From an uncultured Desulfobacterales bacterium (lineage in GTDB: Bacteria; Desulfobacterota; DSM-4660; Desulfatiglandales; HGW-15), in NCBI GenBank assembly GCA_964443135.1, contig CAYUBQ010000005.1, positions 13,692 through 77,691 on the forward strand: a stretch of DNA of 64,000 bases. Reading direction: 5' to 3'. A model generated the notes under the pieces. The model was not told the DNA's origin. It searched no databases and saw only the letters and a list, made by a program, of their open reading frames with translations. This document shows, one piece after another, positions 3,388 to 31,214 of this stretch. The position numbers were made by a program, and so were the translations under genes. Each line of letters starts with the position of its first letter. Position 1 is the stretch's first letter.

Positions 3388-3523
3388 GCCCGCGTGTTCG
3401 AGCCCATGGGTCCGGATTGATTCTTTCCATCCCCCGGGATTTCCGCTATGCTTCCCGCACCACCAACCGCAGCGGCGCCGGCCGGTGCTCAGCCGGACGG
3501 CGGCACACCGCGGGGGGATCGAC

Positions 3524-10617: not shown

Positions 10618-10649
10618 GTTGCATTTTGTTGCATCCGATGTTGCGCAAC
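10618..10649. promoter_or_regulatory. Phased GTTGC repeats, candidate enhancer (UAS) for a sigma-54 activator
   Basis: GTTGCAT at 10618-10624 and again at 10628-10634, exactly 10 bp apart. The palindrome GTTGCGCAAC is at 10640-10649. Further GTTGA/GCAAC copies are at 10709-10726. The repeats sit in an unusually AT-rich tract 90-200 bp upstream of the -24/-12 promoter. Confidence 0.35.
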
Positions 10650-10813
10650 AGTGAGTCTAAAAACATCAGTTGTGAATTCAAAGAGATCAGTTTGAAAATC
10701 AACGAAATGTTGAACCTGCCTGCAACGCCTTCCCCATGGACGGATCAGAGGGGAAAAAGCCGGACAGGTTCAACCTCCTGATTTTCAGCACAGATTCCCT
10801 GTCCCGGGATCCA

Positions 10814-10829
10814 TGGCACGCTTTCTGCT
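10814..10829 (+). promoter_or_regulatory. Sigma-54 (-24/-12) promoter of the hdr-type operon
   Basis: TGGCACGCTTTCTGCT. GG is at 10815-16 and GC at 10827-28 with canonical spacing (TGGCAC-N5-cTGC). It lies about 90 nt upstream of ATG 10919. Confidence 0.65.
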
Positions 10830-10918
10830 GTTCGGAAACCAGGACGAACGGACTGAAACGCGCGGTTCGGCGGGCAACCCCGGGAGGGGGCTCCTGGCCG
10901 AACCGGAGAACGAGGACC

Positions 10919-11356
10919 ATGCACCCTTCCGCTCCTGGAAAGAAGGTCCTGGTGGTCGACGACGAGCCGGATGAGAGGATTTTCCTCTGCAGGCTCCTGG
11001 AGCTGGGCGGCTACGCGTCGATTCTGGCCTCCGACGCCACCGAGGGGCTCGAAATGGCGGTGCGGGAGCGGCCGGACTTGATTTTGCTGGCCGTCATGTT
11101 CGACCACCACGGCAATCTCCTGTTGTTCGACGATCTCAAGCTGGATGCCACCCTCAAGCAGATCCCCGTGGTCCTTCTCTCCTCCATCGACAAGAAGACC
11201 CTGTTTCAGCTCCGGGCCCTCCCCGGAGCATCCAGGGGGAACTTTCTCCTGAGACCCGAGGGCTTCCTGGGCAAGCCGCCGGAAGCGGACGAGCTCCTGG
11301 GTCTCCTGCAAACCCTGACCCGATCGGGGCCCCCGGAACCCCCGGTCGGCCTTTGA
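10919..11356 (+). CDS. Single-domain pseudo-receiver (CheY fold, phospho-acceptor Asp replaced by Ala)
   Basis: ATG 10919 lies inside track ORF 10736..11356. Motifs: KKVLVVDDEPDE, PDLILLAVMF (Ala58, gcc 11090-11092, where receivers carry the acceptor Asp), VVLLSS, and FLGKP. Confidence 0.8.
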   Translation: MHPSAPGKKVLVVDDEPDERIFLCRLLELGGYASILASDATEGLEMAVRERPDLILLAVMFDHHGNLLLFDDLKLDATLKQIPVVLLSSIDKKTLFQLRALPGASRGNFLLRPEGFLGKPPEADELLGLLQTLTRSGPPEPPVGL

Positions 11357-11366
11357 GGCGGAAGCC

Positions 11367-14300
11367 ATGGAGATGAGAGTCGGTTTTTACATCTGTCACT
11401 GCGGGATCAACATCGCCGGCAAGGTGGACGTGGAGGCCGTGGCGGCCTACATTCGAACCCTTCCCGGCGTGACGATCTCCCGGGACTACAAGTTCATGTG
11501 CTCGGACCCCGGCCAGGAGATGATCGTCGACGACATCCGCGAGCACGGACTGAACCGGGTGGTGGTGGCTTCCTGCTCTCCCCGGCTTCACGGCAAGACC
11601 TTCATGGGCGCCTGCCAGCGCGCCGGCCTCAATCCGTACTACTTCCAGATGGCCTCGGTCCGGGAGCAGGTCTCCTGGGTGACCGAGGATCCGGAGCGTG
11701 CCACGGACAAGGCCAAGAGCCTGGCCCGGGCGGCGGTGAATCGGGTACGGCTCCACGAGAGCCTCTTCGCGCGTCACGCCCGGGTCCACCCCGACGTGTT
11801 GGTCGTGGGGGGCGGCATCGCCGGGATCCAGGCCGCCCTGGACATCGGGGCCGCCGGCCGGAAGGTGTACCTGGTGGAGCGGGATCCGACCATCGGCGGG
11901 CACATGCTCCAGTTCGACAAGACCTTTCCCACGCTCGACTGCGCCGCCTGTATCGGGACGCCCAAGATGGTGGAGGTCGCACAGAACCCCTACGTGGAGC
12001 TCCTCTCCTACAGCGAGGTCAAGGAGGTCAACGGATTCATCGGCAACTACACGGTCACGGTCCGGAAAAAGCCCCGCTACGTCGTCGAAGGGGTGTGTAC
12101 GGGCTGCGGCGAGTGCGCCGAGGTCTGCCCGGTGGCCGTTCCCAGCGAGTGGGACGAGAGGCTGGCGGAGCGGGCGGCCGTGTACCGATCTTTCCCCCAG
12201 GCCGTCCCCGTCACCTACGTCATCGACAAGCGCGATCGCGCCCCCTGCACCACGGCCTGTCCGGCCGGGATCAACGTGCAGGGCTACGTACAGCTGGTCA
12301 AGCTGGGAAAGTACGACGAGGCCGTGCGCCTGATCCGGGAACGGCTTCCGCTCCCGGGCGTCCTGGGAAGGGTCTGCCCGGCCTTCTGCGAGAACGGTTG
12401 CCGGCGGACGGAGCTGGACGCAGCCGTGGCCATTCGACAGCTCAAGCGTGTCGCGGCCGACCGGGCCGCCGCATCGGCCTGGGAAACCCCCACGATCGAG
12501 GAACGGAAGGAACGGGTGGCCGTGATCGGGTCCGGCCCGGCCGGTCTGAGCGCGGCCTACTTCCTCCGCCTGGACGGGTTTCAGGTGACCCTGTTCGAGG
12601 CCCTGGAGAAGCTGGGCGGCATGCTCCGCACGGGCATTCCGGACTTTCGCCTGCCGCCGGAGATCCTGGACCGGGAGATCGAGCAGATCCTGGCGCTGGG
12701 GGTGGAGGTGCGGACCGGTACGGTCCTGGGCAGGGACCTCCAGCTGGACTCCCTGAAGGAGCAGGGGTTCGGGGCGGTCTTCCTGGGGATCGGGGCCCAC
12801 AAGGACCTGTCCCTCGGCGTGGAGGGAGAGGAAAGCGAAGGCGTGCTTCGGGCCGTGGAGTTCCTGCGACGGGCCAACCTCGGGGAGAGGCTGGAGGTGG
12901 GGGGGCGGGTGGTCGTGGTGGGCGGCGGCAACGTGGCCGTGGACGCCGCGCGTGTCGCCCGGCGGCTGGGCGCGGAGGAGGTCTCCATCGTCTACCGCCG
13001 GTCCGAGGCCGAGATGCCCGCCTATCCCGAGGAGATCGAAGGGGCGAGGGAAGAGGGAATCCGCATCGCTTACCTGAAGGCCCCGGTCCGGGTGGTTTTG
13101 GAGAACGGCCGCGCGTCGGGGCTGGAGTGTATCGACACCCGGCTCGGACCGCCCGACGAGCGCGGGCGGCGACGGCCCGAGCCGGTGGCGGGATCCGAGC
13201 ACGTGCTGCCCGTGGACACGGTCATCACGGCCATCGGACAGCGGGTGGACGACGCCTGGGCCCGTGAGACGGGGCTCGCGTGGAGCCGTCAGGGGACCAT
13301 CCAGACGCATCCCCGAACCCTGCAAACCTCCCTTTCGCACGTGTTCGCGGCCGGCGACGCGGTGAGCGGACCGGCCAGCGTGGTGGAGGCCGTGGGTGCG
13401 GGACGTAGGGCCGCCCGGGCCGTCCGCCGCTTTCTCGAGGAAGAGGACCTGGCGAACGAGCCGGAGGAGGCCGGGGAGACCGCCTGGGGCCGGGACTGGA
13501 GCCCCGTCCCCGGCGACTCGAAGCGCGTGGAGCGGGCCGAGCCGTCGCACCGCGACGCGCAGGAGCGGGTTCGGGGGTTCGCCGAGGTGGAAGGCGCCCT
13601 CGACGAGGGGCGGGCGCGAGCCGAGGCGGAGCGCTGCCTCAACTGCGGGGTCTGCTCCGAGTGCATGGAGTGCGTAAAGGTGTGCGAGGCGCACGCCATC
13701 GACCACGCCATGGAGGCCCAAGAGGTCGAGCTCCAGGTGGGGAGCATCATCCTCGCCACGGGCTACGATCTCCTGGACCCCACCCCCATGAAGCCCTTCG
13801 GGTACGGGAAGTACCCCAACGTCTTCACCAGCCTCGAGTTCGAACGTATGAACAACGCCACCGGGCCCACCGGCGGACGGATCCTCATGCGGGACGGGAA
13901 GGGCGGGTTCTCTCATCCGCCCGAGAGCGTGGCCGTCGTCCACTGCGTGGGAAGCCGGGACGACCGCTATCACAGCTACTGCTCGCGGGTCTGCTGCATG
14001 TACGCCCTCAAGTACGGGCACCTGGTGCACGACAAGGTGGGGCCCGAAACCCGGATCTACGACTTCTACATCGACATGCGGTGCTTCGGGAAGGGGTACG
14101 AGGAGTTTTACCGCCGGTGCCAGGAGGAGGGCATCCAGTTCATCCGGGGCAAGCCCGCCGAGATCCTGGAGGAGGACGGAAAGCTGGTCCTGGTGGGGGA
14201 GGACACCCTGATCGGGCGCCGCTATCGCGTTCCCGTGGACATGGTGGTGCTCTGCGCCGCCATGCAGGCGAGGGCCGATGCGGGGGCGGTGGGTCGGATT

Positions 14301-14750
14301 TTCGGGATCAGCCAGGGGCAGGACGGGTTCTACCTGGAGGAGCACCCCAAGCTGGCGCCTCTTTCGACGGCCTCGGACGGGATCTTTCTGGCCGGGACCT
14401 GCCAGGCCCCCCGGGACGTGCCGGACACCGTGGCCCAGGCCTCGGGGGCGGCCGCCAAGTCTTTGGCCCTGGCCTCCCTGGGGGAGGTGCAGATCGAGCC
14501 CACCACGAGCTGGATCGACCCGGACATCTGCGCCGGATGCCAGGTGTGCATCGATCTCTGCCCTTACGGTGCCATCGAGTTCGATCCCCAGCGGCATGTC
14601 TCCGTGGTCAACGAGGCCCTGTGCAAAGGTTGCGGGAGCTGCGCGGGGTTCTGCCCGAGCGGTGCGGCCCGGTGTGCGTCCTTCAAGAGCCGGCAGCTGT
14701 TCGCGGAGCTGGACGGCATCTTCGACGCCGTTCATCAGGTGGGGCGGTAG
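11367..14750 (+). CDS. hdrL: HdrL-type large HdrA flavoprotein with inserted GltD/NfnB-like NAD(P)H module
   Basis: HdrA hallmarks: VLVVGGGIAGIQAALD, TFPTLDCAACI, CTGCGECAEVCP, HCVGSRDDRYHSYCSRVCCMYALKY and C-terminal CAGCQVCIDLCP/CKGCGSCAGFCP. Residues about 290-692 carry GltD-type motifs: CTTACPAG, GRVCPAFCENGC, VAVIGSGPAGLSAAYFL, VVVVGGGNVAVDAARV, YRRSEAEMPA. Confidence 0.9.
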   Translation: MEMRVGFYICHCGINIAGKVDVEAVAAYIRTLPGVTISRDYKFMCSDPGQEMIVDDIREHGLNRVVVASCSPRLHGKTFMGACQRAGLNPYYFQMASVREQVSWVTEDPERATDKAKSLARAAVNRVRLHESLFARHARVHPDVLVVGGGIAGIQAALDIGAAGRKVYLVERDPTIGGHMLQFDKTFPTLDCAACIGTPKMVEVAQNPYVELLSYSEVKEVNGFIGNYTVTVRKKPRYVVEGVCTGCGECAEVCPVAVPSEWDERLAERAAVYRSFPQAVPVTYVIDKRDRAPCTTACPAGINVQGYVQLVKLGKYDEAVRLIRERLPLPGVLGRVCPAFCENGCRRTELDAAVAIRQLKRVAADRAAASAWETPTIEERKERVAVIGSGPAGLSAAYFLRLDGFQVTLFEALEKLGGMLRTGIPDFRLPPEILDREIEQILALGVEVRTGTVLGRDLQLDSLKEQGFGAVFLGIGAHKDLSLGVEGEESEGVLRAVEFLRRANLGERLEVGGRVVVVGGGNVAVDAARVARRLGAEEVSIVYRRSEAEMPAYPEEIEGAREEGIRIAYLKAPVRVVLENGRASGLECIDTRLGPPDERGRRRPEPVAGSEHVLPVDTVITAIGQRVDDAWARETGLAWSRQGTIQTHPRTLQTSLSHVFAAGDAVSGPASVVEAVGAGRRAARAVRRFLEEEDLANEPEEAGETAWGRDWSPVPGDSKRVERAEPSHRDAQERVRGFAEVEGALDEGRARAEAERCLNCGVCSECMECVKVCEAHAIDHAMEAQEVELQVGSIILATGYDLLDPTPMKPFGYGKYPNVFTSLEFERMNNATGPTGGRILMRDGKGGFSHPPESVAVVHCVGSRDDRYHSYCSRVCCMYALKYGHLVHDKVGPETRIYDFYIDMRCFGKGYEEFYRRCQEEGIQFIRGKPAEILEEDGKLVLVGEDTLIGRRYRVPVDMVVLCAAMQARADAGAVGRIFGISQGQDGFYLEEHPKLAPLSTASDGIFLAGTCQAPRDVPDTVAQASGAAAKSLALASLGEVQIEPTTSWIDPDICAGCQVCIDLCPYGAIEFDPQRHVSVVNEALCKGCGSCAGFCPSGAARCASFKSRQLFAELDGIFDAVHQVGR

Positions 14751-14831
14751 TGCAGGTGAAGGGTGAGTGGTGTCAGTGAGAAAAAAGCAGGCGGAAAGCG
14801 AGGCACCGAAAACAAGAGAGCGGGGAGCATC

Positions 14832-15260
14832 ATGAGCAACGACGATTTCGAGCCCATCATCATTGCGTTCGTCTGCAACTGGTGCACGTACACGGCTGCG
14901 GATCTGGCCGGGACCTCCAGGCTGATCTACCCGATCAACGTACGTCTGGTCCGGGTCATGTGCACCGGCATGGTGGATCCCAAGTACGTGATCAAGGCGT
15001 TCCTGGAGGGCGCGGACGCCGTGCTCATCAGCGGGTGCCACCCGGGCGACTGCCACTACATCAACGGAAACTTCAAGGCCAGGCGGAGGGTCAAGCTGCT
15101 CGAGGAGATCCTGCCGCAGTTCGGCATCGAACCGGAGCGTCTCAAGCTCACCTGGATCGGGGCGAGCGACGGCCTGGAGTTCGCCCACACGGTGGACGGC
15201 CTGGTCGCTTCGATCAGGGAGATCGGCCCGACCGAGGTCAGGCACACCATGGTCCTGTAA
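14832..15260 (+). CDS. mvhD: MvhD/FlpD-family protein (methyl-viologen-reducing hydrogenase delta subunit-like)
   Basis: ATG 14832. Diagnostic sequence: IIAFVCNWCTYTAADLAGTSRLIYPINVRLVRVMCTGMVDP...GADAVLISGCHPGDCHYINGN. Confidence 0.9.
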   Translation: MSNDDFEPIIIAFVCNWCTYTAADLAGTSRLIYPINVRLVRVMCTGMVDPKYVIKAFLEGADAVLISGCHPGDCHYINGNFKARRRVKLLEEILPQFGIEPERLKLTWIGASDGLEFAHTVDGLVASIREIGPTEVRHTMVL

Positions 15261-15274
15261 ACCGAGAGGTCAGC

Positions 15275-16414
15275 ATGTCCCAGGGATTCAAGATCGAGGT
15301 CAAGGAAGGCGATGTCCAAGGCGCACTGCGGGACTTTCTGGGAAAGATCCTCGAGCGGGAGGAGATCCGCGCCGTCCTGACGCCGCTGCGTCTGCCGTAC
15401 AAGGGGAACGTCATGCAAACGCTGGTGGCCGACAGGGAGCGGCTCGGCGCGGCGGAACCCCTTTCCCCGGCCTATCCCCTGAGCGGGGCCAGGATCCTGA
15501 GCCGGCTGACCCGGGAGGAAGCGGGCGGCCGGGTCGCCGCCGTGCTCCGCCCATGCGAGATTCGGGCCTTCGTGGAGCTCGTCAAGCTCAAGCAGGCGTC
15601 CCGTCAAGACCTGGTTCTCATCGGTCTGGACTGTCCCGGGGCCTTCTCGAACGACGTGTTCGCCCGGGCCGCAGCCGAGGACGAAGCGGGGGACCTGACC
15701 CGGCGCTTTTTTCGTGCCGCCTTTGCCGGGGAGGAAGACCCGGCGGGGTACGAGCTCGCCGGCGCTTGCCGCGCCTGCGAGCACGTCACGCCGGACGCGG
15801 CCGACGTGGCGGTCGGGCTCCACGGCGGGGACCCGGAGCGGGAGATCTGGGTCGAGGCCCGGACCGAGGCCGGTGAAGCCTTGCTGGCCGACCTGGGTCT
15901 CCCGGAGGCCACGGAACCGGAGGGCCGTTCCAGGACCGTGAAGGAGCGGGTCGAGAGGGCGGTCCAGCGGCGGGAAGAGATGTTCGACCGGACCCTGCAG
16001 GCCACCGGCGGCGTGGAGAAGCTCACGTCCTATCTCGCCTCCTGCGTGAACTGCTACAACTGCCGCGTGGCTTGCCCGGTCTGCTACTGCCGGGAGTGTG
16101 TGTTCGGGACGGACGTCTTCGAGCACGAACCCCGGCAATACTTGAACTGGGCCGACCGGAAGGGGGCCGTGAAGATGCCCACGGACACGGTGTTCTACCA
16201 CCTCACGCGCATGGCCCACATGGCGGCTTCCTGCGTGGGCTGCGGCCAGTGCTCGAACGCCTGCCCGAACGACATCCCGGTCATGGAGCTGTTTCGCACC
16301 GTGGCCCGCAGGGTGCAGCAGGACTTCGACTACGAGCCCGGTCGCAGTGTGGAGGAACCGCTTCCCCTTGCGGTGTTCCGCGAGAACGAGTTGGCCGAGG
16401 TGGTGGGACGATGA
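15275..16414 (+). CDS. FrhB/FdhB-like FeS protein with 2x[4Fe-4S] ferredoxin motif
   Basis: ATG 15275 lies inside track ORF 14882..16414. AAVLRPCEIRAFVELVK...LVLIGLDCPGAF resembles the FrhB/FdhB family. Cluster motifs: CVNCYNCRVACPVCYC and CVGCGQCSNACPND. The stop overlaps the next start (ATGA at 16411-16414). Confidence 0.7.
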   Translation: MSQGFKIEVKEGDVQGALRDFLGKILEREEIRAVLTPLRLPYKGNVMQTLVADRERLGAAEPLSPAYPLSGARILSRLTREEAGGRVAAVLRPCEIRAFVELVKLKQASRQDLVLIGLDCPGAFSNDVFARAAAEDEAGDLTRRFFRAAFAGEEDPAGYELAGACRACEHVTPDAADVAVGLHGGDPEREIWVEARTEAGEALLADLGLPEATEPEGRSRTVKERVERAVQRREEMFDRTLQATGGVEKLTSYLASCVNCYNCRVACPVCYCRECVFGTDVFEHEPRQYLNWADRKGAVKMPTDTVFYHLTRMAHMAASCVGCGQCSNACPNDIPVMELFRTVARRVQQDFDYEPGRSVEEPLPLAVFRENELAEVVGR

Positions 16415-19400
16415 GACGAAAGATCGGCAAGGCGCTCGTGGTGGGCGCGGGAATCGCCGGCATTCGATCCGCCCTGGATCTGGCCGAGACCGGTTACGGA
16501 GTGACGCTGATCGAGCGCGCCCCCCACATCGGCGGCATCCTGGCGCAGCTCGACCGCCAGTTCCCGACGGATGCCTGCGGCATGTGCCGGATGCTTCCCA
16601 TGGTGGAGCGGGACGCCGGCGGCCAGTACTGCCTGCGCAAGGGGCTCTTCCACGAGAACATCGACCTGAGGCTGGGAACCGAGCTGAAGGGTCTGGAAGG
16701 GGAGCCCGGGAGGTTCGAGGCCACCTTGAGCACGCGAAGGGCGCGAATCGATCCGGACCGCTGTCAGGGCTGCGGCGCGTGCGCGGAGGCCTGCCCCGTG
16801 GAGCTCCCCGATCCTTTCAACGAGGGCCTCTCCGCGAGGAAGGCCGTCTATCTTCCCGTGCCCCACGCGGTGCCGAACCCGTTTGTCATCGATGCGGAGG
16901 CCTGCACCCTCTGCGGCGCCTGCGAGCAGGTCTGCCCCACCGACGCGATCACCCTCGGGGACCCCGGCCGGAAGGCGTTCCGCGTTCTCGTCGTGGACGA
17001 CGAGAGGATTGTCCGGGACTCCCTCGAGGACTGGCTCGAGGACGTGGGGTTCGGTGTGGAGACGGCGGCCTCGGGCCAGGAGGCCCTGGATCGGCTGGCG
17101 CAGGATCCCTTCGACCTCCTGCTGGTGGACATCAAGATGCCCGGCATGGACGGGGTGGAGGTCCTGCGCCGGGCGCGTGAGAGCCGCCCCGACCTCACCG
17201 TGATCATGATCACGGCGTACGCCACGGTGGACACCGCGGTGGAGGCCATGAAGATCGGCGCCCTGGACTACCTGACCAAACCGTTCGACCCGGAAAAGCT
17301 GGTTCCGATGGTGGAAACCGTGTACCAGGACCGCCACGGCCCCGGACGGGAGACCCTGGAGGTGGGGGCCGTGGTGCTGGCCTGCGGCATGTCCGTCCTC
17401 GACCCCTCCGAAGGGTTCGGTTGGACCGGGTACGCCGAGATGGCCGACGTGGTGACCGGACTCGAGCTCGAAAGGATCCTGAGCGGGACAGGCCCCACGG
17501 GGGGGCGTCTGACGAGGCCCTCCGACGGCGGGCCCGTAAAGCGGATCGCCTGGCTCCAGTGCGTGGGGTCCCGGGACCGGCAGGCCGACGCGGAGTTCTG
17601 CTCCTCCATCTGCTGCATGATCTCCCTCAAGGAGGCGCGCCTGGTCCGAAAGCGCACGGGCGGCGAGGTGGAGACCCACATCTTCTACATGGACCTCCGC
17701 ACCCCGGGGAAGCGTTTTCAGCGCTACGAAGAAGGGGCGGAGGCCGAAGGCGTGCAGCTCCACCGGGTACGGGTCCACTCGGTGGTGCCGGAGGAGAGGA
17801 CCGGGCTACCCCGGATCCAGTACGTCTCGGAGGAGGGCGTCCTCCGGGAGGAGACCTTTGACCTGGTGGTGCTCGCGACGGGGGCCCGGCCTCCGGCCGG
17901 AACCGGCGAGCTGGCCGACATGCTCGATCTGGAACGAAACCCGTGGGGGTTTGTTCAGCCCCGGGCGTTTCACCCGGCCGTGTCCAGCCGCGAAGGCGTG
18001 CTCCTTAGCGGGGCCTTCGGGGCTCCTTGCGACATCGCCGACTCGGTCCTGTTGGCCGGCGGAGCAGCCCTGGAGGCCTCCCGCATCATTCACGCCGCGG
18101 GAGGAGGCCTTGCGCCGGAGGAGTCAGAGGAGAGCCCGTACCGGGACGTCTCGCGGGAGCGGCCCAGGAGCCTGATCGCGCTCTGCCGATGTGCCAGGGA
18201 CACCGTTCCCGACCTCGATCTCGAAGGCCTGGCCCGCGACCTGGAGGCCGACCCCGGAGTGGCCCGGGTGGAGGTCGTCGAGAACCTCTGCACGGCCTCC
18301 GGCTGGGACGCTCTGGTGGAGGCGGCCCGGAAGAAGCGACCCAACCGCATCCTTTTGGGGGCGTGCCTTCCTTACGTCTACGGCCGGCGGCTCCGCGAGC
18401 TGGGCAGGCAAATCGGTCTGGCCCCGGGCTACATGGACGTGGTGGATCTTCGGACACCCTTCTTCTCCGTCAATGAACCCGAGGCGGCCCGCCGCCTGGC
18501 CGGCTCGGAGATCCGCATGGCGCTGGCCCGAGTTCGACGCCCCGGCCCGCCGGTCCGGGAGGTCCGGACCGTGGAGCCCCGGGCCCTGGTGGTGGGGGGC
18601 GGAATCGCGGGCCTCTATGCGGCGCTGGCCATCGCCGATCACGGCTACCCCGTGGAGATCGTGGAGCGCGAAGCAGCCCCGGGCGGAAACCTGACCTGGT
18701 TGCCGCGCACGCTCGAGGGCAGGGAGCCGGCGGAGCTCCTGGAAGGGGTCCTGGCCGAGGTGGAAAAGCACCCCCAGGTTCAACTGCACGCCTCGGCGGA
18801 GGTGGTCGAGTCCTCCGGTCGAGCGGGCCGGTTCAGGACCGTGATTCAGAACGCCGAGGGGGTTCGCCGAACCGTGGAGCACGGTGTGGTCATCCTGGCC
18901 ACCGGCGGCCGCGAGGCGGAGCCCGAGGGGTTCGGTCGGGGCGAAGCGGAGAAGGTCCTCACCCAGCGGGAGTTGGAACGGGTCCTGGCCGGGGAGGACC
19001 TGGATCCCGCCGGTCTCGAGTCCGTGGTGATGATCCAGTGCGCCGGGACCCGCACCGGGTCCCGCAACTACTGCAGCCGCGTCTGCTGCCCCACGGCCGT
19101 GCGCCAGGCTCTGCTTCTCCGTGAAAGGAACCCGGAGCTCTCGGTCTGGGTCCTCTACCGGGACATGATGACGCCCGGGTTCCTGGAGGCGGACTACGCC
19201 CGGGCCCGGGAGGCCGGGGTGCACTTCATCCGGTACGCACCCGAGCGGAGGCCGGCGGTGGAGGCTGGGTCGGAGAAGGCGGCGGTCACCGTGTGGGAGC
19301 CGGTGCTGGGGAGGGAGGTTCGGATCCCGGCGGACCTGGTGGTCCTGGCGGGCGGGGTTTCACCCGAGCTGCCCGCGGAGCTCGCCGCGACCTTTGGCGC

Positions 19401-19833
19401 CGGGCTGGACGAGGCCGGCTTCTTCCAGGAGGCCGACGGCAAGTGGCGGCCCGTGGACGCCCTGCGTGAGGGGGTGTTCGCCTGCGGGCTGGCCCTCTCG
19501 CCCCGCACCGTGGCCGAGTCCCTGGCCTCGGCCGGCGCCGCGGCGGAACGGGCCCTTCGCATCCTCGCAAGGGAGACCCTCCCCGTGGACCTTCGGGTGG
19601 CGCGCGTCCGTCACGCCCTCTGCTCGCGTTGCGAGCAGTGCCTGGACGCCTGCCCTTACGAGGCCCGCTACGTGGATCCGGAGAAGGGCCTGGTGGTCGT
19701 GGACGAGACGGCGTGTCAGGGCTGCGGAAGCTGCGCGGCCGTCTGCCCGAACAGCGCCACGGTGCTGGAAGGGCTGGACGACCGCCGGATGCTCGAGTCC
19801 ATCGACGCGGCCCTGGAGGCGGGTTGGAGGTGA
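16411..19833 (+). CDS. Tandem HdrA-type flavoprotein (two HdrA modules) with an embedded CheY-type receiver domain
   Basis: Module 1: ALVVGGGAGIAGIRSALD-type fold (KALVVGAGIAGIRSALD), FPTDACGMC, CQGCGACAEACP, CTLCGACEQVCP, then REC (aa about 190-306), then WLQCVGSRDRQADAEFCSSICCMISLKE. Module 2: ALVVGGGIAGLYAALA, MIQCAGTRTGSRNYCSRVCCPTAV, and C-terminal CSRCEQCLDACP/CQGCGSCAAVCP. Confidence 0.9.
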   Translation: MRRKIGKALVVGAGIAGIRSALDLAETGYGVTLIERAPHIGGILAQLDRQFPTDACGMCRMLPMVERDAGGQYCLRKGLFHENIDLRLGTELKGLEGEPGRFEATLSTRRARIDPDRCQGCGACAEACPVELPDPFNEGLSARKAVYLPVPHAVPNPFVIDAEACTLCGACEQVCPTDAITLGDPGRKAFRVLVVDDERIVRDSLEDWLEDVGFGVETAASGQEALDRLAQDPFDLLLVDIKMPGMDGVEVLRRARESRPDLTVIMITAYATVDTAVEAMKIGALDYLTKPFDPEKLVPMVETVYQDRHGPGRETLEVGAVVLACGMSVLDPSEGFGWTGYAEMADVVTGLELERILSGTGPTGGRLTRPSDGGPVKRIAWLQCVGSRDRQADAEFCSSICCMISLKEARLVRKRTGGEVETHIFYMDLRTPGKRFQRYEEGAEAEGVQLHRVRVHSVVPEERTGLPRIQYVSEEGVLREETFDLVVLATGARPPAGTGELADMLDLERNPWGFVQPRAFHPAVSSREGVLLSGAFGAPCDIADSVLLAGGAALEASRIIHAAGGGLAPEESEESPYRDVSRERPRSLIALCRCARDTVPDLDLEGLARDLEADPGVARVEVVENLCTASGWDALVEAARKKRPNRILLGACLPYVYGRRLRELGRQIGLAPGYMDVVDLRTPFFSVNEPEAARRLAGSEIRMALARVRRPGPPVREVRTVEPRALVVGGGIAGLYAALAIADHGYPVEIVEREAAPGGNLTWLPRTLEGREPAELLEGVLAEVEKHPQVQLHASAEVVESSGRAGRFRTVIQNAEGVRRTVEHGVVILATGGREAEPEGFGRGEAEKVLTQRELERVLAGEDLDPAGLESVVMIQCAGTRTGSRNYCSRVCCPTAVRQALLLRERNPELSVWVLYRDMMTPGFLEADYARAREAGVHFIRYAPERRPAVEAGSEKAAVTVWEPVLGREVRIPADLVVLAGGVSPELPAELAATFGAGLDEAGFFQEADGKWRPVDALREGVFACGLALSPRTVAESLASAGAAAERALRILARETLPVDLRVARVRHALCSRCEQCLDACPYEARYVDPEKGLVVVDETACQGCGSCAAVCPNSATVLEGLDDRRMLESIDAALEAGWR

Positions 19834-19893
19834 CCGGAGCCGTTCGGAAGGGCGGCTGAGCGGCGAACACGGGACATGCCCCGAGGTGACGTC

Positions 19894-20472
19894 ATGGTGG
19901 AGATTCAGAAGCAGGACCCGCGCGGATCGAACGGAGCGGAGGGACCGGATCCCCTGGCTGCGGTGCGGAAGCTGATTCAGCCCTGCATCCAGTGCGGGAC
20001 GTGCACGGGCTCGTGCCCCAACGCGTTCGCCATGGACCTCACGCCCCGCGTGCTGTGGCGGCTTGTGCTGAGGGGAGAGGTCGACGAGATCTTCCACAGC
20101 CGGACCTTCACGCTCTGCTCCTCCTGCTACTCCTGCACGTTGCGGTGTCCCCGTCAGCTCCCGGTGACCGAGGCCATGGCCGGTCTCAAGCAGGAGGCCG
20201 CGAGGCGCCGGCCGGAGCTCCATCGCCCCAGCGCGGCGTTCAGCAGGACCTTCATGGACAGCGTCCGCAGGCACGGCCGGGTCAACGAGATGGAGTTCAT
20301 GTTCTTCTACTTCGCCGCCCGGAAGAACCCGCTCCTTCCCTTTCGATTTTCTCCCATGGGCATGAGGCTGATGCGAAGGGGTAAGGTGAAGGTGTCCGTG
20401 CCCGGGTCGGGCGGAAACGACGTTTTGGATTCCCTGTTTCGAAACGTGGAGCGACTGGAGCGCACCCCATGA
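19894..20472 (+). CDS. hdrC: Heterodisulfide reductase subunit C-like (2x[4Fe-4S])
   Basis: Cluster motifs CIQCGTCTGSCP and CSSCYSCTLRCP. Start preferred at ATG 19894 (GAGGTGA 5 nt upstream) over 19876. The stop overlaps the hdrB start (ATGA). Confidence 0.85.
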   Translation: MVEIQKQDPRGSNGAEGPDPLAAVRKLIQPCIQCGTCTGSCPNAFAMDLTPRVLWRLVLRGEVDEIFHSRTFTLCSSCYSCTLRCPRQLPVTEAMAGLKQEAARRRPELHRPSAAFSRTFMDSVRRHGRVNEMEFMFFYFAARKNPLLPFRFSPMGMRLMRRGKVKVSVPGSGGNDVLDSLFRNVERLERTP

Positions 20473-21335
20473 GGTACTTCTACTACCCGGGATGCTCCCT
20501 GGAGGGAACCGCAAGGGAGTACGACCTGAGCACCCGTGCCTTTCTCCGCGCGGCCGGGATGGACCTGGTGGATCTGCCCGACTGGACCTGCTGCGGGGCC
20601 ACCGCGGCCCAGGGAATGAGCCGGCTGCTTGCCCTGGCCCTCCCGGCCCGGAATCTGGCCCTGGCCGAGAGGACCGGTGAGACCCTGGACATCCTGGTTC
20701 CCTGCAGCGCCTGCTACCTGAACCTGAGAAGGGCCGAGGAGAGGATCCGCTCGGGCGGGGAGGCGAAGCGCGAGATCAACGAGGCCCTGTCCGAGACCGG
20801 GCTCCAGTGCAGCGGGGGAGTCCGGGTGCGTCACCTCCTCGACGTTCTCTCCCGGGACCTGGACGCCGCCTGGCTGGCCGAACGCGTGACGCGCCCCCTC
20901 GAGGGGATGCGCATCGCCTCCTACTACGGTTGCCAGTGCCTGCGGCCGTATGCGGACTTCGACGACCCGGAGGAGCCTCGAACCATGGAGCCGCTCATCC
21001 GGGCCACCGGCGCGGAACTGTTCTCCTGGACCGCCGGGGCCCGCTGCTGCGGCGCTTCCCACATGACCACCAAGCCCGAGATCGGGATCGAACTCGTGGC
21101 CGGTCTGCTCGAGGCGGCGCGCGGGGCGGATGCCATCGTGACCGTGTGCCCCATGTGCCAGATGAACCTCGAGGCCTACCAGCGAAAGGCCTCGCGCGTC
21201 CGGGGAGCCGACCTGAGTGCGACCGTTCTCTACCTTCCCCAGCTTCTCGGCCTCGCGCTGGGCCTTTCGAGTGACGAGGTCCGCCTCGATCTCAACCTCG
21301 CCGTCGGGCGGGGGTTCAAGAAAACGGCCGCCTGA
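20469..21335 (+). CDS. hdrB: Heterodisulfide reductase subunit B-like (two CCG domains)
   Basis: Motifs: YYPGCSL, DWTCCGAT, VPCSACY, YYGCQC, ARCCGAS and TVCPMCQMNL. Confidence 0.9.
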   Translation: MRYFYYPGCSLEGTAREYDLSTRAFLRAAGMDLVDLPDWTCCGATAAQGMSRLLALALPARNLALAERTGETLDILVPCSACYLNLRRAEERIRSGGEAKREINEALSETGLQCSGGVRVRHLLDVLSRDLDAAWLAERVTRPLEGMRIASYYGCQCLRPYADFDDPEEPRTMEPLIRATGAELFSWTAGARCCGASHMTTKPEIGIELVAGLLEAARGADAIVTVCPMCQMNLEAYQRKASRVRGADLSATVLYLPQLLGLALGLSSDEVRLDLNLAVGRGFKKTAA

Positions 21336-21360
21336 CGCATTCACCTGGAAAGGACCGCCG

Positions 21361-23667
21361 GTGTTCTCCTGGATCAAGAGCCTTCGGCAGAGGCTGGTGA
21401 CCAAGCTGATCCTGACCGTGGGGTTGACCCTGCTGGTCAGCATCTCGGCCTGGTCGTACGCCATCGTCCGTTACCAGGAGAACCAGACCATGCGCAACCT
21501 TTCCCTGGAGGCGGATCGTCTGAGCACGACCATCAAGCTGGGCACCCACTACGCCATGATGCTGAACTCCAGGGAGGACATCGCCGAGACCATCAAGAAC
21601 ATCAGCCGCCAGCCGGAGATCAAGGCCATCCGCATCTACAACAAGTCGGGCCAGATCACCTACTCGGACGATGCGGAGGAGATCGGCCGGATCACGAACA
21701 TCAAGGACGAGGCCTGCTACGTGTGCCATCGCAGCGACCCGCCCCTGGTCGAGCTGGACCTGTCCGAAAGGACCAGGATCTTCAAGGGTGAAAACGAAAC
21801 CCGCATGCTCGGCATCCTGAGCGCCATCTACAACGAGCCGGGGTGCGCCTCCGCGGCGTGCCACATCCACCCCGAGGGCAAAGAGGTCCTGGGGGCGCTG
21901 GACGTGGTGCTTACCCTGGCCCCGGCGGAAAAGAGGATCACCGCCTACAAGCAGTGGACCACGGCCATGACCGTGCTCGTCCTCCTGGTCACGACCGTGG
22001 CGGTGCTCCTGTTCATCATGCGCTTCGTCAATCGTCCTGTGAGCCACATGATCGCGGCCACCCGGCGGATCGCGAGGGGTGAAAGCGACGTGGGCGTGGA
22101 AGTCCGCCAGGAGGACGAGATGGGCCAGCTGGCGGACGCCATCACCTACATGGGCGGTGAGATCGAGCGGAACCAGGCGGCCCTCAACAAGCAGCGCAAG
22201 GAGTACCAGCGGTTGTTCGAGCTCGTCCCCTGCATCATCACGGTGCAGGACCGAAACTACAGGCTCATCAACTACAACCGGGAGTTCGCCGAGAAGTTCG
22301 CCCCCACTCCCATGGACACCTGCTACCATGCCTACAAGGGCCGAACGAGCAAGTGCGATCCGTGCCCCGTGGAGAGGGCCTTCGAGGACGGTGAGGTTCA
22401 TCAAAGCGAGGAGTCCGGGATGAACTGGGACGGCACCATGAGCCACTGGATCGTGATCGCCACCCCGGTCTGGAACGAGAAGGGCGAGATCCAGTCGGCC
22501 ATGGAGATCAGCCTGGACATCACGGAACGTCGGCTCCTGGAGCAGGAGCTGGAAAAGTCCGAGCAGAAGTATCACGCCATCTTCAACAACATTCCCAACG
22601 CCGTCTTTGTCCTGGATCCGGACACCCTGGACATCCTCGACTGCAACGACAGCATAACCCAGGTGTACGGCTACGGAAAAGACGAGATCTTGAACCGGTC
22701 CTTCCTGGAGCTTCACGAGGAGAAGGGGCGCGAGCAGTTCAGGAAGATGCTCAAAGCCTACGAGGTGCTCAACCGGGTGCAGCACGAGCACAAGACGGGG
22801 AGGACGATCTACGTGAACATTCGGGTCTCCCCCTCCGAGTACACCGGTCAGAAGGTGCTCCTGGTCACCACGAGCGACATCACCAAGAGGCTGGAGACCG
22901 AGGAGCAGCTGGCCCAGGCGAGCAAGCTGGCCACCCTGGGGGAGATGGCCACGGGTGTGGCCCACGAGCTCAACCAGCCCCTTTCCGTGATCAAGACCGT
23001 GTCCAGCTTTTTCATGAAGAAGCTGAACGCAGCGCAGGAAATACCCGCCGAGACGCTGTACCAGATGCTCGGCAAGGTGGACACCAACGTGGACCGGGCC
23101 ACCAAGATCATCACCCACATGCGTCTCTTCGCCCGGAAGTCAGAGATGAAGCTCGACCAGGTGCGGATCGAGGACGTGCTGGACCGGGCCTTCGACATCT
23201 TCACCCAGCAGCTCAGGGTACGCGGCATCGAGGTGGTTCGGGAGTTCGGTGAGACGTCGCCCCCCATCATGGCGGATCCGGACCGGTTGGAGCAGGTCTT
23301 CATCAATCTCCTGATCAACGCCAGGGACGCCATCGAGGAGCGGTGGGCGGGTCGGGAGAGCGAGTCGGGGGACAAGCGGATCACCGTGAGGACGAGGTCC
23401 GAGGACGGTGCCGTGGTGGTGGAGGTGCAGGACACGGGCTCCGGGATCGACGGCGCCCACAAGGACAAGATCTTCGATCCCTTCTTCACCACGAAGGAGG
23501 TGGGGAAGGGGACCGGACTGGGACTGTCCATCAGCTACGGGATCGTCAAGGACTGCGGGGGAGACATCTGCGTGGCTCGGAACGAAGGACCCGGCGCCTG
23601 CTTCGCGGTCCGGTTCCCCGTGAAGGATGAAGAGGATGAATCGACAGACCATACTCCTGGTGGATGA
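21361..23667 (+). CDS. Transmembrane sensor histidine kinase: extracytoplasmic CXXCH domain, HAMP, 2x PAS, HisKA, HATPase
   Basis: GTG 21361 lies 25 nt after hdrB. TM1 spans aa 14-35, followed by a 165-aa loop with CYVCH (21715-21729) and CASAACH (21844-21864), then TM2 and HAMP. Kinase motifs: H-box GVAHELNQPLS, NLLINARDAI, DTGSGI, GTGLGLS. Confidence 0.85.
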   Translation: MFSWIKSLRQRLVTKLILTVGLTLLVSISAWSYAIVRYQENQTMRNLSLEADRLSTTIKLGTHYAMMLNSREDIAETIKNISRQPEIKAIRIYNKSGQITYSDDAEEIGRITNIKDEACYVCHRSDPPLVELDLSERTRIFKGENETRMLGILSAIYNEPGCASAACHIHPEGKEVLGALDVVLTLAPAEKRITAYKQWTTAMTVLVLLVTTVAVLLFIMRFVNRPVSHMIAATRRIARGESDVGVEVRQEDEMGQLADAITYMGGEIERNQAALNKQRKEYQRLFELVPCIITVQDRNYRLINYNREFAEKFAPTPMDTCYHAYKGRTSKCDPCPVERAFEDGEVHQSEESGMNWDGTMSHWIVIATPVWNEKGEIQSAMEISLDITERRLLEQELEKSEQKYHAIFNNIPNAVFVLDPDTLDILDCNDSITQVYGYGKDEILNRSFLELHEEKGREQFRKMLKAYEVLNRVQHEHKTGRTIYVNIRVSPSEYTGQKVLLVTTSDITKRLETEEQLAQASKLATLGEMATGVAHELNQPLSVIKTVSSFFMKKLNAAQEIPAETLYQMLGKVDTNVDRATKIITHMRLFARKSEMKLDQVRIEDVLDRAFDIFTQQLRVRGIEVVREFGETSPPIMADPDRLEQVFINLLINARDAIEERWAGRESESGDKRITVRTRSEDGAVVVEVQDTGSGIDGAHKDKIFDPFFTTKEVGKGTGLGLSISYGIVKDCGGDICVARNEGPGACFAVRFPVKDEEDESTDHTPGG

Positions 23668-25216
23668 TGAGGAAGACATCCGCCTCGTGCTGAGCGTTGC
23701 CCTCACCGACATGGGGTACGACGTGATTGCGGCCGAGAACGGCAAGGAGGCCCTCCGGCTGTTTCGAGAGAAACGTCCGCCCATCGTCATCACGGACATC
23801 AAGATGCCCGACATCGACGGCGTGGACCTTCTCAGGACGATCAAGGAGGAGGCTCCGGACACCGAGGTCGTCATGATCACCGGGCACGGGGACATGGACG
23901 TGGCCATTCAGAGCTTTCAACAGGAGGCCACGGACTTCATCACCAAGCCCATAAACGTGGAGAATCTGGAAAACTCGTTGCAGCGCGTGCACGAGCGGAT
24001 CCTCGCTCGGGAGAAGCTGCGGCAGTACACCCACTCTCTGGAGAGCATGGTCTACCGGAAGTCGGAGGAGCTGGCCAGCCTGGAAAAGACGCTCCAGGGC
24101 GGGGACGGCGGGCCGCCGGCGGGTGACGTCGTCCGGCGGTTCCAGCGGCTCTTCGACGACCTCCCCTGCCACGTGGCGGTGATGGACGAGGAACTGGTCC
24201 TCACCGCCGTCAACCGGAAGTTTCGTCGGGACTTCGGTGACCGTGAGGGGGAGTTGTGCTATCATGTGTTGAAAAATGCGAAAGCCCCCTGCACGGACTG
24301 CGCTGTGCAGGAGACCTTCGGCACGGGCGAGAGCCAGGAGGGGGAGGCGGAGATCACCACGCCGGACGGCGTCGCGCATCAGGTCCTCGTGTGGACCTCG
24401 CCGGTACGCACGGCCGGGGACGACCCCACCCACGTGCTCACGCTCTACACGGACATGACCCAGATCCGGAAGGTCCAGGACCACCTGAGCTCGCTGGGGC
24501 TCATGGTGGGATCCATCTCCCACAGCATCAAGGGCATGCTCACGGGCCTGGACGGCGGCATGTACCTGCTGGACTCGGGCCTGCGGAGGCAGGACGACGA
24601 TCAGGTCCACGAAGGCCTTGGCGTGGTCAAGGAGATGGTGGGACGGATCCGGAACATGGTGCTGGACGTCCTGCTCTTTTCCAAGGACCGGGATCTCAGG
24701 AAGGTCGAGACGGGGGTGGCGGAGTTCGCCGCGGAGGCGGCCAAGGGGATTCGATCCCTGGTGGAGGAGCACGGGATTGACTTCAGCCTGGAGTGCCCCG
24801 AGGACGCCGGCGTGTTCGAGGTGGACCCGGGGCTTCTCCGCACGGCCTTTGTGAACGTGCTCGAGAACGCGGTGGACGCGTGTCTCGAGGACAAGAGCCG
24901 GAAGGACCACCGGATTGCGTTTCGCGTTCGTGGTGAGGAGGACGAGGTCGTCTTCGAGGTGGAGGACGACGGCGTGGGCATGGACGAAGAGACCCGAGAG
25001 AAGATGGCCACCCTGTTTTTCTCTTCGAAAGACCGGAAGGGAACCGGGCTGGGGCTCTACATCACGGACCGGACCGTCCGGCAGCACGGCGGCGACATTG
25101 CCGTGGAATCCGAGGCGGGTCGGGGGACGCTGTTCACCATCCGGATTCCACGGAAGGCCGAAGCAGGCGGAGACGCACCCGCAGGTGACGTCGGCGGGCC
25201 GGGGGAGGACACCTGA
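23627..25216 (+). CDS. Hybrid sensor kinase: receiver, Cys-motif PAS, HisKA-like, HATPase
   Basis: REC motifs: LLVDDEEDIR, ITDIKMPDIDG, MITGH, ITKP. The PAS carries C-x10-C-x2-C. Kinase motifs: H-box SISHSIKGML, NVLENAVDA, DDGVGM, GTGLGLY. It overlaps the preceding kinase by about 40 nt. An alternative ATG is at 23636. Confidence 0.85.
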   Translation: MKRMNRQTILLVDDEEDIRLVLSVALTDMGYDVIAAENGKEALRLFREKRPPIVITDIKMPDIDGVDLLRTIKEEAPDTEVVMITGHGDMDVAIQSFQQEATDFITKPINVENLENSLQRVHERILAREKLRQYTHSLESMVYRKSEELASLEKTLQGGDGGPPAGDVVRRFQRLFDDLPCHVAVMDEELVLTAVNRKFRRDFGDREGELCYHVLKNAKAPCTDCAVQETFGTGESQEGEAEITTPDGVAHQVLVWTSPVRTAGDDPTHVLTLYTDMTQIRKVQDHLSSLGLMVGSISHSIKGMLTGLDGGMYLLDSGLRRQDDDQVHEGLGVVKEMVGRIRNMVLDVLLFSKDRDLRKVETGVAEFAAEAAKGIRSLVEEHGIDFSLECPEDAGVFEVDPGLLRTAFVNVLENAVDACLEDKSRKDHRIAFRVRGEEDEVVFEVEDDGVGMDEETREKMATLFFSSKDRKGTGLGLYITDRTVRQHGGDIAVESEAGRGTLFTIRIPRKAEAGGDAPAGDVGGPGEDT

Positions 25217-25239
25217 ACCGAAGGGAGAGGAGGTGCACC

Positions 25240-25596
25240 ATGGCCAAGAAGATCCTGGTCGTCGATGACGAGCAGGCGGTCGTCCGGTACATGACCACCC
25301 TGTTCGAGGACCACGGCTACGAGGTCATTGCGGCGACGGACGGGGCCGAGGCCCTCGAGGTCCTGGACCATAGCGTGCCGGATCTCATCACGCTGGACCT
25401 CCAGATGGACAAGGTCTGGGGACCGCAGTTCTACCGGAAGATGAGCAGGAACCCGGCCCTCGAGGAGGTCCCCGTGATTGTCGTGAGCGGCCTCGCCCGG
25501 CCGGAGCTGGCCGTCAAGAAGGCTGCGGCCGTGGTCGGGAAACCCTTCGATCCGGACGAGCTCGTCCGGATCGTTCGAGAACAGATCGGCGAGTAA
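25240..25596 (+). CDS. Single-domain CheY-like response regulator
   Basis: Motifs KKILVVDDEQ, DLITLDLQMD, VIVVSG and VGKPF are all canonical receiver residues. GGAGAGGAGG RBS. Confidence 0.9.
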   Translation: MAKKILVVDDEQAVVRYMTTLFEDHGYEVIAATDGAEALEVLDHSVPDLITLDLQMDKVWGPQFYRKMSRNPALEEVPVIVVSGLARPELAVKKAAAVVGKPFDPDELVRIVREQIGE

Positions 25597-25601
25597 CCGC
25601 G

Positions 25602-25924
25602 TCAAAAATCCCGGAACTCCCGATCACTCATGAGGTCGCCGCCGGCCGCAAGGCCGTGCTTTCCCTTTTCGGGTTCCTCCCCGATCCGTCGCCACCTCTT
25701 TCGGAGCCGGGGGACGGGGCCCGCGTCCGCCCGGCCGCCGTTCGACCGGTTTCCTTCCCCCGCCAGGGCCGCCAGCTGTCGAATGATCTCCTCGAGCTGC
25801 TCCGACTGGCATTCATCTCCTCGGACGCCGACGCGGACTCCTCCGCCTGAGAAACGTTCTGCTGGACGACCTTGTCCCTCTCGGCACGGGCCTGCTCGCT
25901 GCATCCCTTCTCCACGCCGGCGAT
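25602..25924 (-). pseudogene. Frameshifted C-terminal remnant of a methyl-accepting chemotaxis protein
   Basis: Two minus-strand frames together read ...VVQQNVSQAEESASASEEMNA / QSEQLEEIIRQLAALAG...SDREFRDF*. This is the conserved end of an MCP signalling domain plus the usual acidic-aromatic tail. A 1-nt frame break lies in the Ala codon near 25808-25810. No upstream MCP sequence is present. Confidence 0.55.
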
Positions 25925-25929
25925 TCCTT

Positions 25930-25958
25930 TTGACACCCCCGTGGTTTTCACATATAAA
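25930..25958 (+). promoter_or_regulatory. Near-consensus sigma-70 promoter (TTGACA-17-TATAAA)
   Basis: TTGACA at 25930-25935, 17-nt spacer, TATAAA at 25953-25958. It lies about 100 nt upstream of ATG 26058. Confidence 0.55.
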
Positions 25959-26057
25959 AATCCTTTACCTTCAAGGGCTTTCGGCCTTTCACCGGAATCC
26001 GACAGCGTGGGGCAGGCCGGTGAAACCACGGGAGCCCGACAGTCGGGAGGTGCCGTC

Positions 26058-30248: not shown

Positions 30249-30284
30249 GATGCTCTCCGCGATTCGTGGACGGTCGTTGTCAAA

Positions 30285-31210: not shown

Positions 31211-31214
31211 CTCT

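Follow-up and report, generated by a model that had tools for sequence, protein, structure and literature searches.

Heterodisulfide reductase (Hdr)-type electron-bifurcating complexes determine, in sulfate reducers and syntrophs, how scarce reducing power is shared out between NAD(P)H, ferredoxin and DsrC, the carrier of sulfite reduction, and to our knowledge the regulation of such complexes once they have been made is essentially undescribed. Here we analyse a 64,000-nucleotide stretch of contig CAYUBQ010000005.1 from an uncultured Desulfobacterales bacterium (hereafter the window), in which the genes of one such complex run directly into genes for sensor kinases, and in which the HdrA flavoprotein itself contains a nested receiver domain (REC) of the response-regulator type. 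The closest described enzyme is encoded by Sfum_0819-0824 of Syntrophobacter fumaroxidans, a complex named HdrABC/HdrL that proteomics revealed solely in the presence of sulfate and for which confurcation of electrons onto DsrC has been proposed (PMC5947623). The first definition of HdrL came from Desulfobacterium autotrophicum (PMC2702500). Compared by published gene order, Sfum_0819-0824 and the window have in common the series HdrL, MvhD, FdhB-like iron-sulfur protein, HdrA, HdrC and HdrB, a series that is conserved in 51-68 related loci. Because this order equals that of the published HdrABC/HdrL, and HdrL is already defined, the enzyme is of a known kind. Both publications treat the cluster as an enzyme only, leaving undiscussed the receiver in HdrA, the fused double HdrA, the dedicated kinases and the sigma-54 elements (PMC5947623, PMC2702500); the legend to Fig. 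4 of the 2009 paper labels a 'response regulator', a 'histidine kinase' and a 'CheY-like regulator' beside hdr loci (PMC2702500). Two loci from uncultured Syntrophobacter (L032, L033) are collinear with the window and carry both the embedded receiver and the kinases.

Parts of the control layer also have described counterparts. In Desulfovibrio vulgaris the sigma-54 response regulator DVU2394 controls adh-hdrABC-flxABCD (PMC3333781, PMC4641369), a system like the present one in that a sulfate reducer's Hdr-type complex, linked to NAD(P)H, is tied to sigma-54 and a two-component-linked enhancer-binding protein. In D. vulgaris, however, it is the transcription activator that bears the receiver, and control acts at transcription only, whereas the window encodes a PAS activator without a receiver and carries a receiver in the enzyme; furthermore, HdrL takes the place of Flx, and HdrA is a fused double module. 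The methanogen complexes Mvh-Hdr (5ODC), Fdh-Hdr-Fmd (7BKB) and Elp-Hdr (8RVU; PMC12350162) share with the window the fold of HdrA together with its cluster motifs, an MvhD connector, an FdhB/ElpB donor arm and HdrBC. Their HdrA is by contrast a symmetric homodimer with neither receiver nor NfnB-like insert, their substrate is CoM-S-S-CoB, and the window has no F420 system and, as an earlier reading made from the sequence alone (the sequence-only reading) had stated, no hydrogenase, formate dehydrogenase, Dsr or Qmo gene anywhere in its 64 kb (Pfam scans). CheB and PleD are response regulators with enzymatic outputs. Fusions of REC to thioredoxin reductase have been recorded in response-regulator censuses (PMC5847659), and the principle common to such fusions is that a fused receiver places an enzymatic domain under two-component control. 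The receiver described here differs in that it is not terminal but nested in the flavoprotein fold of a multi-subunit bifurcating complex, beside a ferredoxin domain. What is already known, then, is the enzyme, the sigma-54 control of hdr operons and the principle of receiver-enzyme fusion; what is new is a bifurcating HdrA with a receiver nested inside it, a dedicated pair of haem/Cys-PAS kinases and a conserved architecture of promoter and activator sites. In the literature we searched we found no description of a receiver inside HdrA, nor of a kinase/embedded-receiver control layer of HdrABC/HdrL.

The protein that carries the receiver is a fused double HdrA (HdrA-REC-HdrA). A phmmer search of the PDB aligns it with solved HdrA (6.6e-107) in four collinear segments, which map onto 8rvv_A as follows: residues 6-180 to HdrA 141-305 (start of the FAD domain and inserted ferredoxin domain), 311-506 to 311-505 (FAD domain resumed), 589-753 to 5-171 (HdrA N-terminal domain and start of a second FAD domain) and 931-1135 to 440-642 (including the C-terminal ferredoxin domain). 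Module 1 consists of a FAD domain, an inserted ferredoxin domain and REC, and module 2 of an HdrA N-terminal domain, a FAD domain without inserted ferredoxin and a C-terminal ferredoxin domain; in lacking the inserted ferredoxin domain, module 2 resembles the sulfur-oxidiser HdrA 6TJR. The AlphaFold2 model is confident (pLDDT 84, pTM 0.82) and has HdrA chains as its best Foldseek matches (8rvy_A, E=6e-44), GxGxxG motifs stand at residues 12-17 and 729-734, and the Cys columns are conserved. By these alignments the 1140-residue protein is a covalently fused, asymmetric HdrA pseudo-dimer.

The phosphorylation site of the embedded receiver is canonical, with an acidic pair (D196, D197), an acceptor (D240), T268 and K290, all five of which are invariant in 64 aligned database relatives (~55% identity). 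The receiver is found in 69/69 full-length genomic relatives, 66 of which keep D240, and each of the 120 best database clusters is full length, shares 53-91% identity and carries PF00072, under public annotation names such as 'response regulator', 'FAD-dependent oxidoreductase' and 'heterodisulfide reductase subunit A'. Its insertion point is the place where the inserted ferredoxin domain rejoins the flavin domain. In methanogen Hdr this ferredoxin domain is the low-potential exit, on which the polyferredoxin MvhB docks (PMC12350162). The receivers nearest to the embedded one (43-50% identity) are those of NtrC-type response regulators encoded beside some hdr clusters (L004:15478-15849, L020:7348-7731, L028:20485-20820, L037:21130-21456), and there are hints that the embedded receiver derives from a regulator of this type.

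Immediately downstream of the enzyme genes are those for a membrane sensor kinase (HK1) and a REC-PAS-kinase hybrid. HK1 has a predicted periplasmic domain of ~165 residues between two hydrophobic segments (residues ~35-200; window 21460-21960), with no match among Pfam families or PDB sequences. In the window protein this segment carries CYVCH and CASAACH; the corresponding CxxCH and Cx3-4CH are invariant in 20 orthologs and occur in the contexts E-A-C-x-x-C-H and N-[ED]-P-x-C-x3-4-C-H-x-H, which are of the c-type haem attachment type, both haem attachment and membrane topology being predictions. The domain looks like an undescribed two-haem sensor domain. Periplasmic CxxCH haem-c domains, thought to be redox-sensing, are present in the membrane signalling proteins DcrA of D. 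vulgaris and GSU0582/GSU0935 of Geobacter; HK1 differs from these in having two motifs (CxxCH and Cx3-4CH-x-H) and in being a kinase, not a chemoreceptor.

The invariant residues of HK1 (C117, C120, H121, C160, C165, H166, H168, C289, C319, C330, C333) include four Cys of its first cytoplasmic PAS domain, spaced C289...C319-x10-C330-x2-C333. Comparable sets occur in the REC-PAS-kinase's PAS domain (C211-x10-C222-x2-C225, invariant in 11/11) and in the first PAS domain of a sigma-54 activator encoded upstream (C112-x8-C121-x3-C125, numbered from 5136, invariant in 17/17 orthologs). All three sets lie at the same place in the fold, and the domains may bind Fe-S clusters or metal. Only the activator's spacing equals a characterised case, that of OrpR (DVU2106), whose [4Fe-4S] redox-sensor PAS requires three Cys, C52/C61/C65 (PMC8359166). 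Likened by this published C-x8-C-x3-C spacing, both proteins are receiver-less PAS-AAA+-HTH activators with three PAS Cys; the window activator differs in having two PAS domains and a predicted hdr target, not orp genes, and its Fe-S binding is predicted. NCBIfam offered a specific family for neither the activator nor the kinases.

The union of enzyme and signalling genes recurs across genomes. A scan of one genome per species yielded 580 pattern-matched stretches encoding a relative of the double HdrA, the best 80 being loci of full length, which come from Desulfobacterales, Syntrophobacterales, Desulfovibrionales and unclassified Desulfobacterota; onto these 80 we mapped the window proteins, counting for each neighbour only loci with enough flanking sequence. 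The double HdrA is accompanied by the FdhB-like protein in 68/69 loci, by MvhD upstream in 60/61, by HdrL in 51/51 and by HdrB in 57/70, with HdrC downstream in 58/74. Of the genes for signalling, an ortholog of HK1 (identity 44% or more) is present in 39/60 loci, nearly always directly after hdrB or hdrA, a REC-PAS-kinase in 32/57, a small leading receiver in 27/47 and a CheY in 8/56, and kinase orthologs at 50-58% identity hold the same position across orders. An activator ortholog occurs within 10 kb in 12/32 loci. Orthologs (identity 44% or more, coverage 85% or more) of a second REC-PAS-kinase, which in the window lies upstream together with the activator, likewise occur within 10 kb of the hdr block in 12 of 32 fully covered loci, where they often immediately precede the activator and leading receiver; many relatives have the activator gene directly upstream of the leading receiver gene. 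A reciprocal scan of metagenomes with the sensor half of HK1 as query returned loci in which hdrB or hdrA-REC is directly upstream in 38/58, hdrA-REC is within the upstream 10 kb in 24/34, and a REC-PAS-kinase is directly downstream in 46/50. Among 24 fully covered loci that have both kinases there are 7-9 whose embedded receiver is the sole canonical one nearby that is not joined to a kinase domain.

A further link comes from the eight loci in which the embedded receiver is degenerate, all of which lack HK1. Where enough downstream sequence was available, HK1 is present in 0/5 of the degenerate-receiver loci vs 38/50 of the canonical ones (Fisher p=0.0018), and this co-loss of HK1 and phospho-site ties the kinase to the embedded receiver, suggestively only. 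All eight are of a Desulfovibrionales type: their HdrL is short, being without the NfnB insert, and their kinase-regulator-activator set is divergent.

Two variant layouts stand out among the 80 loci. The Desulfovibrionales-type one (L048, L049, L052, L054, L056, L061, L062, L065, L071) has an HdrL without NfnB-like insert, neither HK1 nor REC-PAS-kinase downstream, and a receiver phospho-site that is degenerate where scored (L054 and L071 were not scored); in seven of these loci, those with upstream sequence, a divergent kinase/receiver/activator set lies upstream on the opposite strand. The other variant lacks downstream hdrC and hdrB (L004, L005, L013, for example L013:1553-4285, L021, L029, L039, L053, L057, L068) and, except in L053, has ~2.4 kb of additional genes, which give weak matches to HdrC-like ferredoxins, between the leading receiver and hdrL. 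In six loci of this second variant HK1 directly follows hdrA; L004 and L005 are without HK1, and in L021 the contig ends there.

In the window the ten genes of the block are closely packed on the plus strand between 10919 and 25596, as established from an open reading frame listing, a frame check by GC content at third codon positions (GC3) and Pfam and NCBIfam domain scans. Successive genes overlap by ATGA at 16411 and at 20469 and by 41 nt at 23627, elsewhere lying 10-81 nt apart, and a scan for terminators and sigma-70 promoters inside the block, itself uninformative, gave no terminator-like site on the plus strand between the ten genes. The sequence-only reading had begun the block at 10814, a position that stands as that of the promoter and not as a gene start, the first gene beginning at 10919. 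The promoter element lies inside a 284-nt intergenic region (10635-10918). When the 400 nt upstream of the leading receiver gene were scanned for GG and GC cores with at most 2 mismatches, a -24/-12 element was found in 22/26 loci, compared with 2.29 expected from dinucleotide shuffles, mostly 45-120 nt before the start codon. Paired TTGCA/TGCAA half-sites, which are candidate activator sites, follow the same pattern: they lie 70-290 nt upstream of the -24/-12 element in 19/23 regions vs 1.41 expected (dinucleotide shuffles), typically in the form GTTGCA-N5-7-TGCAAC and often in two copies near -100 and -190, and the 64-kb window has one such paired site only, at 10619-10633. The sigma-54 promoter that had been called from a single sequence is well supported by this conservation. 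The upstream REC-PAS-kinase and receiver-less PAS activator were also confirmed (Pfam), and the activator is most likely cognate to the operon, its binding being predicted; no rpoN was found in the 64-kb window. Taken together, these conserved sites make a control layer of sigma-54 and activator highly probable.

The enzyme subunits agree with the assignment to HdrABC/HdrL. HdrL shows the defining arrangement, an HdrA interrupted by a GltD/NfnB-like NAD(P)H-FAD module with mvhD as the next gene: the insert spans residues ~288-793 (PRK12771 288-793), flanked by matches to NF040770 (residues 4-299) and to HdrA models (755-1121; NCBIfam), and the protein matches solved M. marburgensis HdrA (8rvu_a) at 2.4e-215 (phmmer, PDB). 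The best structural relatives of the insert are NfnA of NfnABC (9n5u_A, 1.1e-123 over residues 292-770) and NfnI (phmmer, PDB); it enters at about HdrA residue 290-300, within a few residues of the point at which the receiver enters the double HdrA, and it resembles NfnB of NfnABC. The FdhB-like protein, for which the earlier FrhB-like domain call stands with the start corrected to 15275, aligns nearly end to end with ElpB 8rvu_E (1.4e-31) and FdhB 7bkb_E (3.7e-26), and cryo-electron microscopy has shown subunits of this type to be a flavin/FeS 'donor arm' feeding HdrA via MvhD (PMC12350162). By homology, MvhD and the FdhB/ElpB-like subunit are counterparts of the donor arm in solved methanogen Hdr complexes. 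In translation, HdrC carries both CX2CX2CX3C motifs (CIQCGTCTGSCP, CSSCYSCTLRCP) and HdrB two complete CCG motif sets (C...CC...CxxC), so read, the two retain all cluster motifs of the disulfide-reducing site; because its TIGR03288 score is 161.6 against an equivalog cutoff of 345, we call the latter HdrB-like and not a methanogen ortholog. The complex is probably a flavin-based electron-bifurcating or confurcating one of the HdrABC/HdrL type, its function being predicted, and we infer a coupling among NAD(P)H, ferredoxin and a protein disulfide, probably that of DsrC.

Two single-domain receivers complete the block. In the first gene product the acceptor Asp is replaced by Ala ('LLAVMFD'), so that it is, as the sequence-only reading had it, a pseudo-receiver here; this is a lineage-specific condition, the acceptor position in 29 positional orthologs being D in 16, N in 8, A in 3 and E in 2. 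The CheY-like protein at the 3' end of the block keeps its acceptor Asp and has D9, D10 and D53.

We put at roughly 0.6 the probability that the hdr and signalling genes form one sigma-54-dependent operon of a Desulfobacterota-type bacterium, encoding the enzyme plus its own phosphorelay, and we think the odds even or slightly better that the adjacent kinases phosphorylate the enzyme. In the mechanism we propose, an OrpR-like redox-sensing activator would turn on a single sigma-54 transcript carrying enzyme and kinases. HK1 would sense periplasmic redox through two c-type haems and cytoplasmic redox through its Cys4 PAS site and signal to the adjoining REC-PAS-kinase, with the phosphoryl group relayed finally to Asp240 of the HdrA-embedded receiver; the leading small receiver would serve, as would the DivK-like CheY, as an accessory partner or a phosphate sink. 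Because the receiver sits where the inserted ferredoxin domain, the low-potential exit, rejoins the flavin domain, its phosphorylation would reposition or gate that neighbouring domain or alter complex assembly. Electron flow would then be switched on, off or between directions, tuning the coupling of NAD(P)H (at HdrL), ferredoxin and disulfide. The full version, in which the haem/Cys4-PAS HK1 and the REC-PAS-kinase phosphorylate the HdrA receiver and so gate the low-potential branch or reverse bifurcation and confurcation, is offered tentatively, as less probable than not, and we hold the gating of the ferredoxin domain with less confidence than the action of the kinases on the enzyme.

Several observations weigh against this interpretation. 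HK1 is not beside the block in about one third of loci, and the acceptor Asp of the leading receiver has been lost in 13/29. The activator is encoded 3.9 kb from the promoter, the activator/REC-PAS-kinase pair being parted from the operon by two minus-strand genes, for an AMP-dependent ligase and a CNNM/CBS protein; this separation looks like a local insertion, since many loci run from REC-PAS-kinase through activator and small receiver to hdrL onward. The window holds no Dsr gene, and DsrC is a proposed substrate. Phosphotransfer partners are not fixed by sequence, and their pairing here rests on genomic linkage. Kinase and phospho-site may have been lost together in a single evolutionary event, because their co-loss is confined to the Desulfovibrionales-type clade; and since loci of that clade retain the enzyme although its receiver is degenerate, the receiver may in addition have a structural role that does not depend on phosphorylation. 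Taken further, this last point, along with the Asp-less leading receivers and the loci without HK1 nearby, would suit a receiver that serves purely in structure or assembly, such as one offering a docking surface to the leading (pseudo)receiver or to a partner subunit, while the kinases signal elsewhere, to the DivK-like CheY or to unlinked regulators, and control expression or behaviour, not enzyme activity. We judge this unlikely: the invariance of D196, D197, D240, T268 and K290 is hard to explain without phosphorylation chemistry, linkage of the kinase pair to hdr holds from both search directions, and several loci have no other kinase-less receiver nearby.

The signal might also run the other way, with the HdrA receiver acting as a phosphate sink or reporter of the redox state or conformation of an enzyme that itself senses, and that tunes the kinase network and cell-wide responses. 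Three kinases and several receivers accompany zero DNA-binding response regulators, the activator is without a receiver, and two of the kinases bear N-terminal receivers typical of branched relays, all of which fits such an arrangement; it would nonetheless require an output not visible at the locus, and the kinases already own likely redox sensors in their haem motifs and Cys-PAS domains, so that we consider it improbable, more so than a structural receiver. That the genes adjoin fortuitously in genomes rich in two-component systems, with a -24/-12 match arising by chance, could draw on the fact that the same pattern (at most 2 mismatches) is not enriched across the window alone (30 matches vs 44.6 expected). 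Against it stand the recurrence of promoter and activator site at orthologous positions, the constant placing of kinase orthologs across orders and the reciprocal HK1 scan; on these grounds we reject it as very improbable. The block as the sequence-only reading described it, ten plus-strand genes with the domains it listed, is in this respect upheld: domain searches (Pfam, NCBIfam) recovered its HdrA, HdrB, HdrC and MvhD assignments, and of the two outcomes it had named as contrary that can be looked for in silico, failed domain calls and homologous loci without the signalling genes, neither was what we found.

Coordinates of the operon, its control sites and the upstream regulatory genes are collected in Table 1. 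The other 38 kb of the window contain housekeeping genes, acyl-CoA genes and genes for an HdrD-like protein and a further PAS activator. Directly 3' of the operon is a gene for a fusion of cyclic-nucleotide-binding and PilZ domains (25872-26759, +), likewise present in the closest relative (L001). The HdrD/TfrB-like protein (40854-41978, -), with a ferredoxin-type dicluster and two CCG domains, is unlinked to other hdr genes, and the second receiver-less PAS-sigma54 activator (PAS-AAA+-HTH_8) lies at 61512-63041 (-). An acetyl-CoA hydrolase/transferase with a fused C-terminal GNAT acetyltransferase domain (31607-33607, -) is near an extracytoplasmic function (ECF) sigma factor (30599-31234) and a multi-cluster ferredoxin-like protein (29262-30284). 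Three open reading frames, 2701-3594 (-), 34501-35817 (+) and 46244-47191 (-), have coding-like GC3 bias and zero Pfam matches. A link of the operon to the adjoining acyl-CoA genes (AMP-ligase, enoyl-CoA hydratase, thiolase) was considered and rejected, as these are not conserved neighbours; AMP-ligase matches of ~34% identity occur in four loci only.

Table 1. Positions in the window of the hdr/signalling operon, its predicted control sites and the upstream regulatory genes
Feature	Coordinates	Strand	Identification
Upstream REC-PAS-HisKA-HATPase hybrid kinase	3524..5071	+	Pfam
PAS-PAS-sigma54 AAA+-HTH_8 activator without receiver	~5286..7031	+	PF00158 7.8e-70; GAFTGA
Candidate upstream activator site, TTGCATTTTGTTGCA then palindrome GTTGCGCAAC	10619..10650	.	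~165-195 nt upstream of -24 element
-24/-12 promoter TGGCAC-N5-CTGC, TGGCACGCTTTCTGC	10814..10828	+	91 nt before ATG at 10919
Small single-domain receiver, first operon gene	10919..11356	+	Response_reg 7.2e-08
HdrL, 1127 aa	11367..14750	+	HdrA N-terminal, FAD, inserted and C-terminal ferredoxin domains; NfnB/GltD-like NAD(P)H-FAD-2[4Fe-4S] insert
MvhD-type [2Fe-2S] connector	14832..15260	+	PF02662 (FlpD) 1.9e-51
FdhB/ElpB-like flavin/FeS subunit, 379 aa	15275..16414	+	PF04432 (FrhB_FdhB_C) and Fer4
Fused double HdrA (HdrA-REC-HdrA), 1140 aa	16411..19833	+	phmmer, AlphaFold2, Foldseek
Embedded receiver of double HdrA, residues 191-302	16981..17316	+	Response_reg 1.1e-33 at residues 192-301
HdrC-like 2x[4Fe-4S] subunit	19876..20472	+	TIGR03290 1.7e-19 (below cutoff) and Fer4 families
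HdrB-like subunit	20469..21335	+	PF02754 two stretches, 1.2e-22; TIGR03288 2.3e-47
HK1 membrane sensor kinase	21361..23667	+	Pfam: HAMP-PAS-PAS-HisKA-HATPase
REC-PAS(Cys3)-kinase hybrid	23627..25216	+	Pfam
Stand-alone CheY-like receiver, DVU0259/DivK family	25240..25596	+	NF045717 160.7 bits vs cutoff 160

For the regulation of Hdr-type bifurcating complexes, this locus provides a handle in the form of a receiver at the ferredoxin exit, a haem/Cys-PAS kinase pair, and a sigma-54 promoter/activator-site pair with an OrpR-like activator. Cultured S. fumaroxidans makes the complex abundantly under sulfate reduction, and the hypothesis is therefore testable in existing strains. The double-HdrA family is present on several hundred Desulfobacterota genome contigs. 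If the hypothesis is true, direct phospho-control would be known for the first time in a flavin-based electron-bifurcating enzyme, and phospho-controlled bifurcation would be widespread in marine and syntrophic Desulfobacterota.

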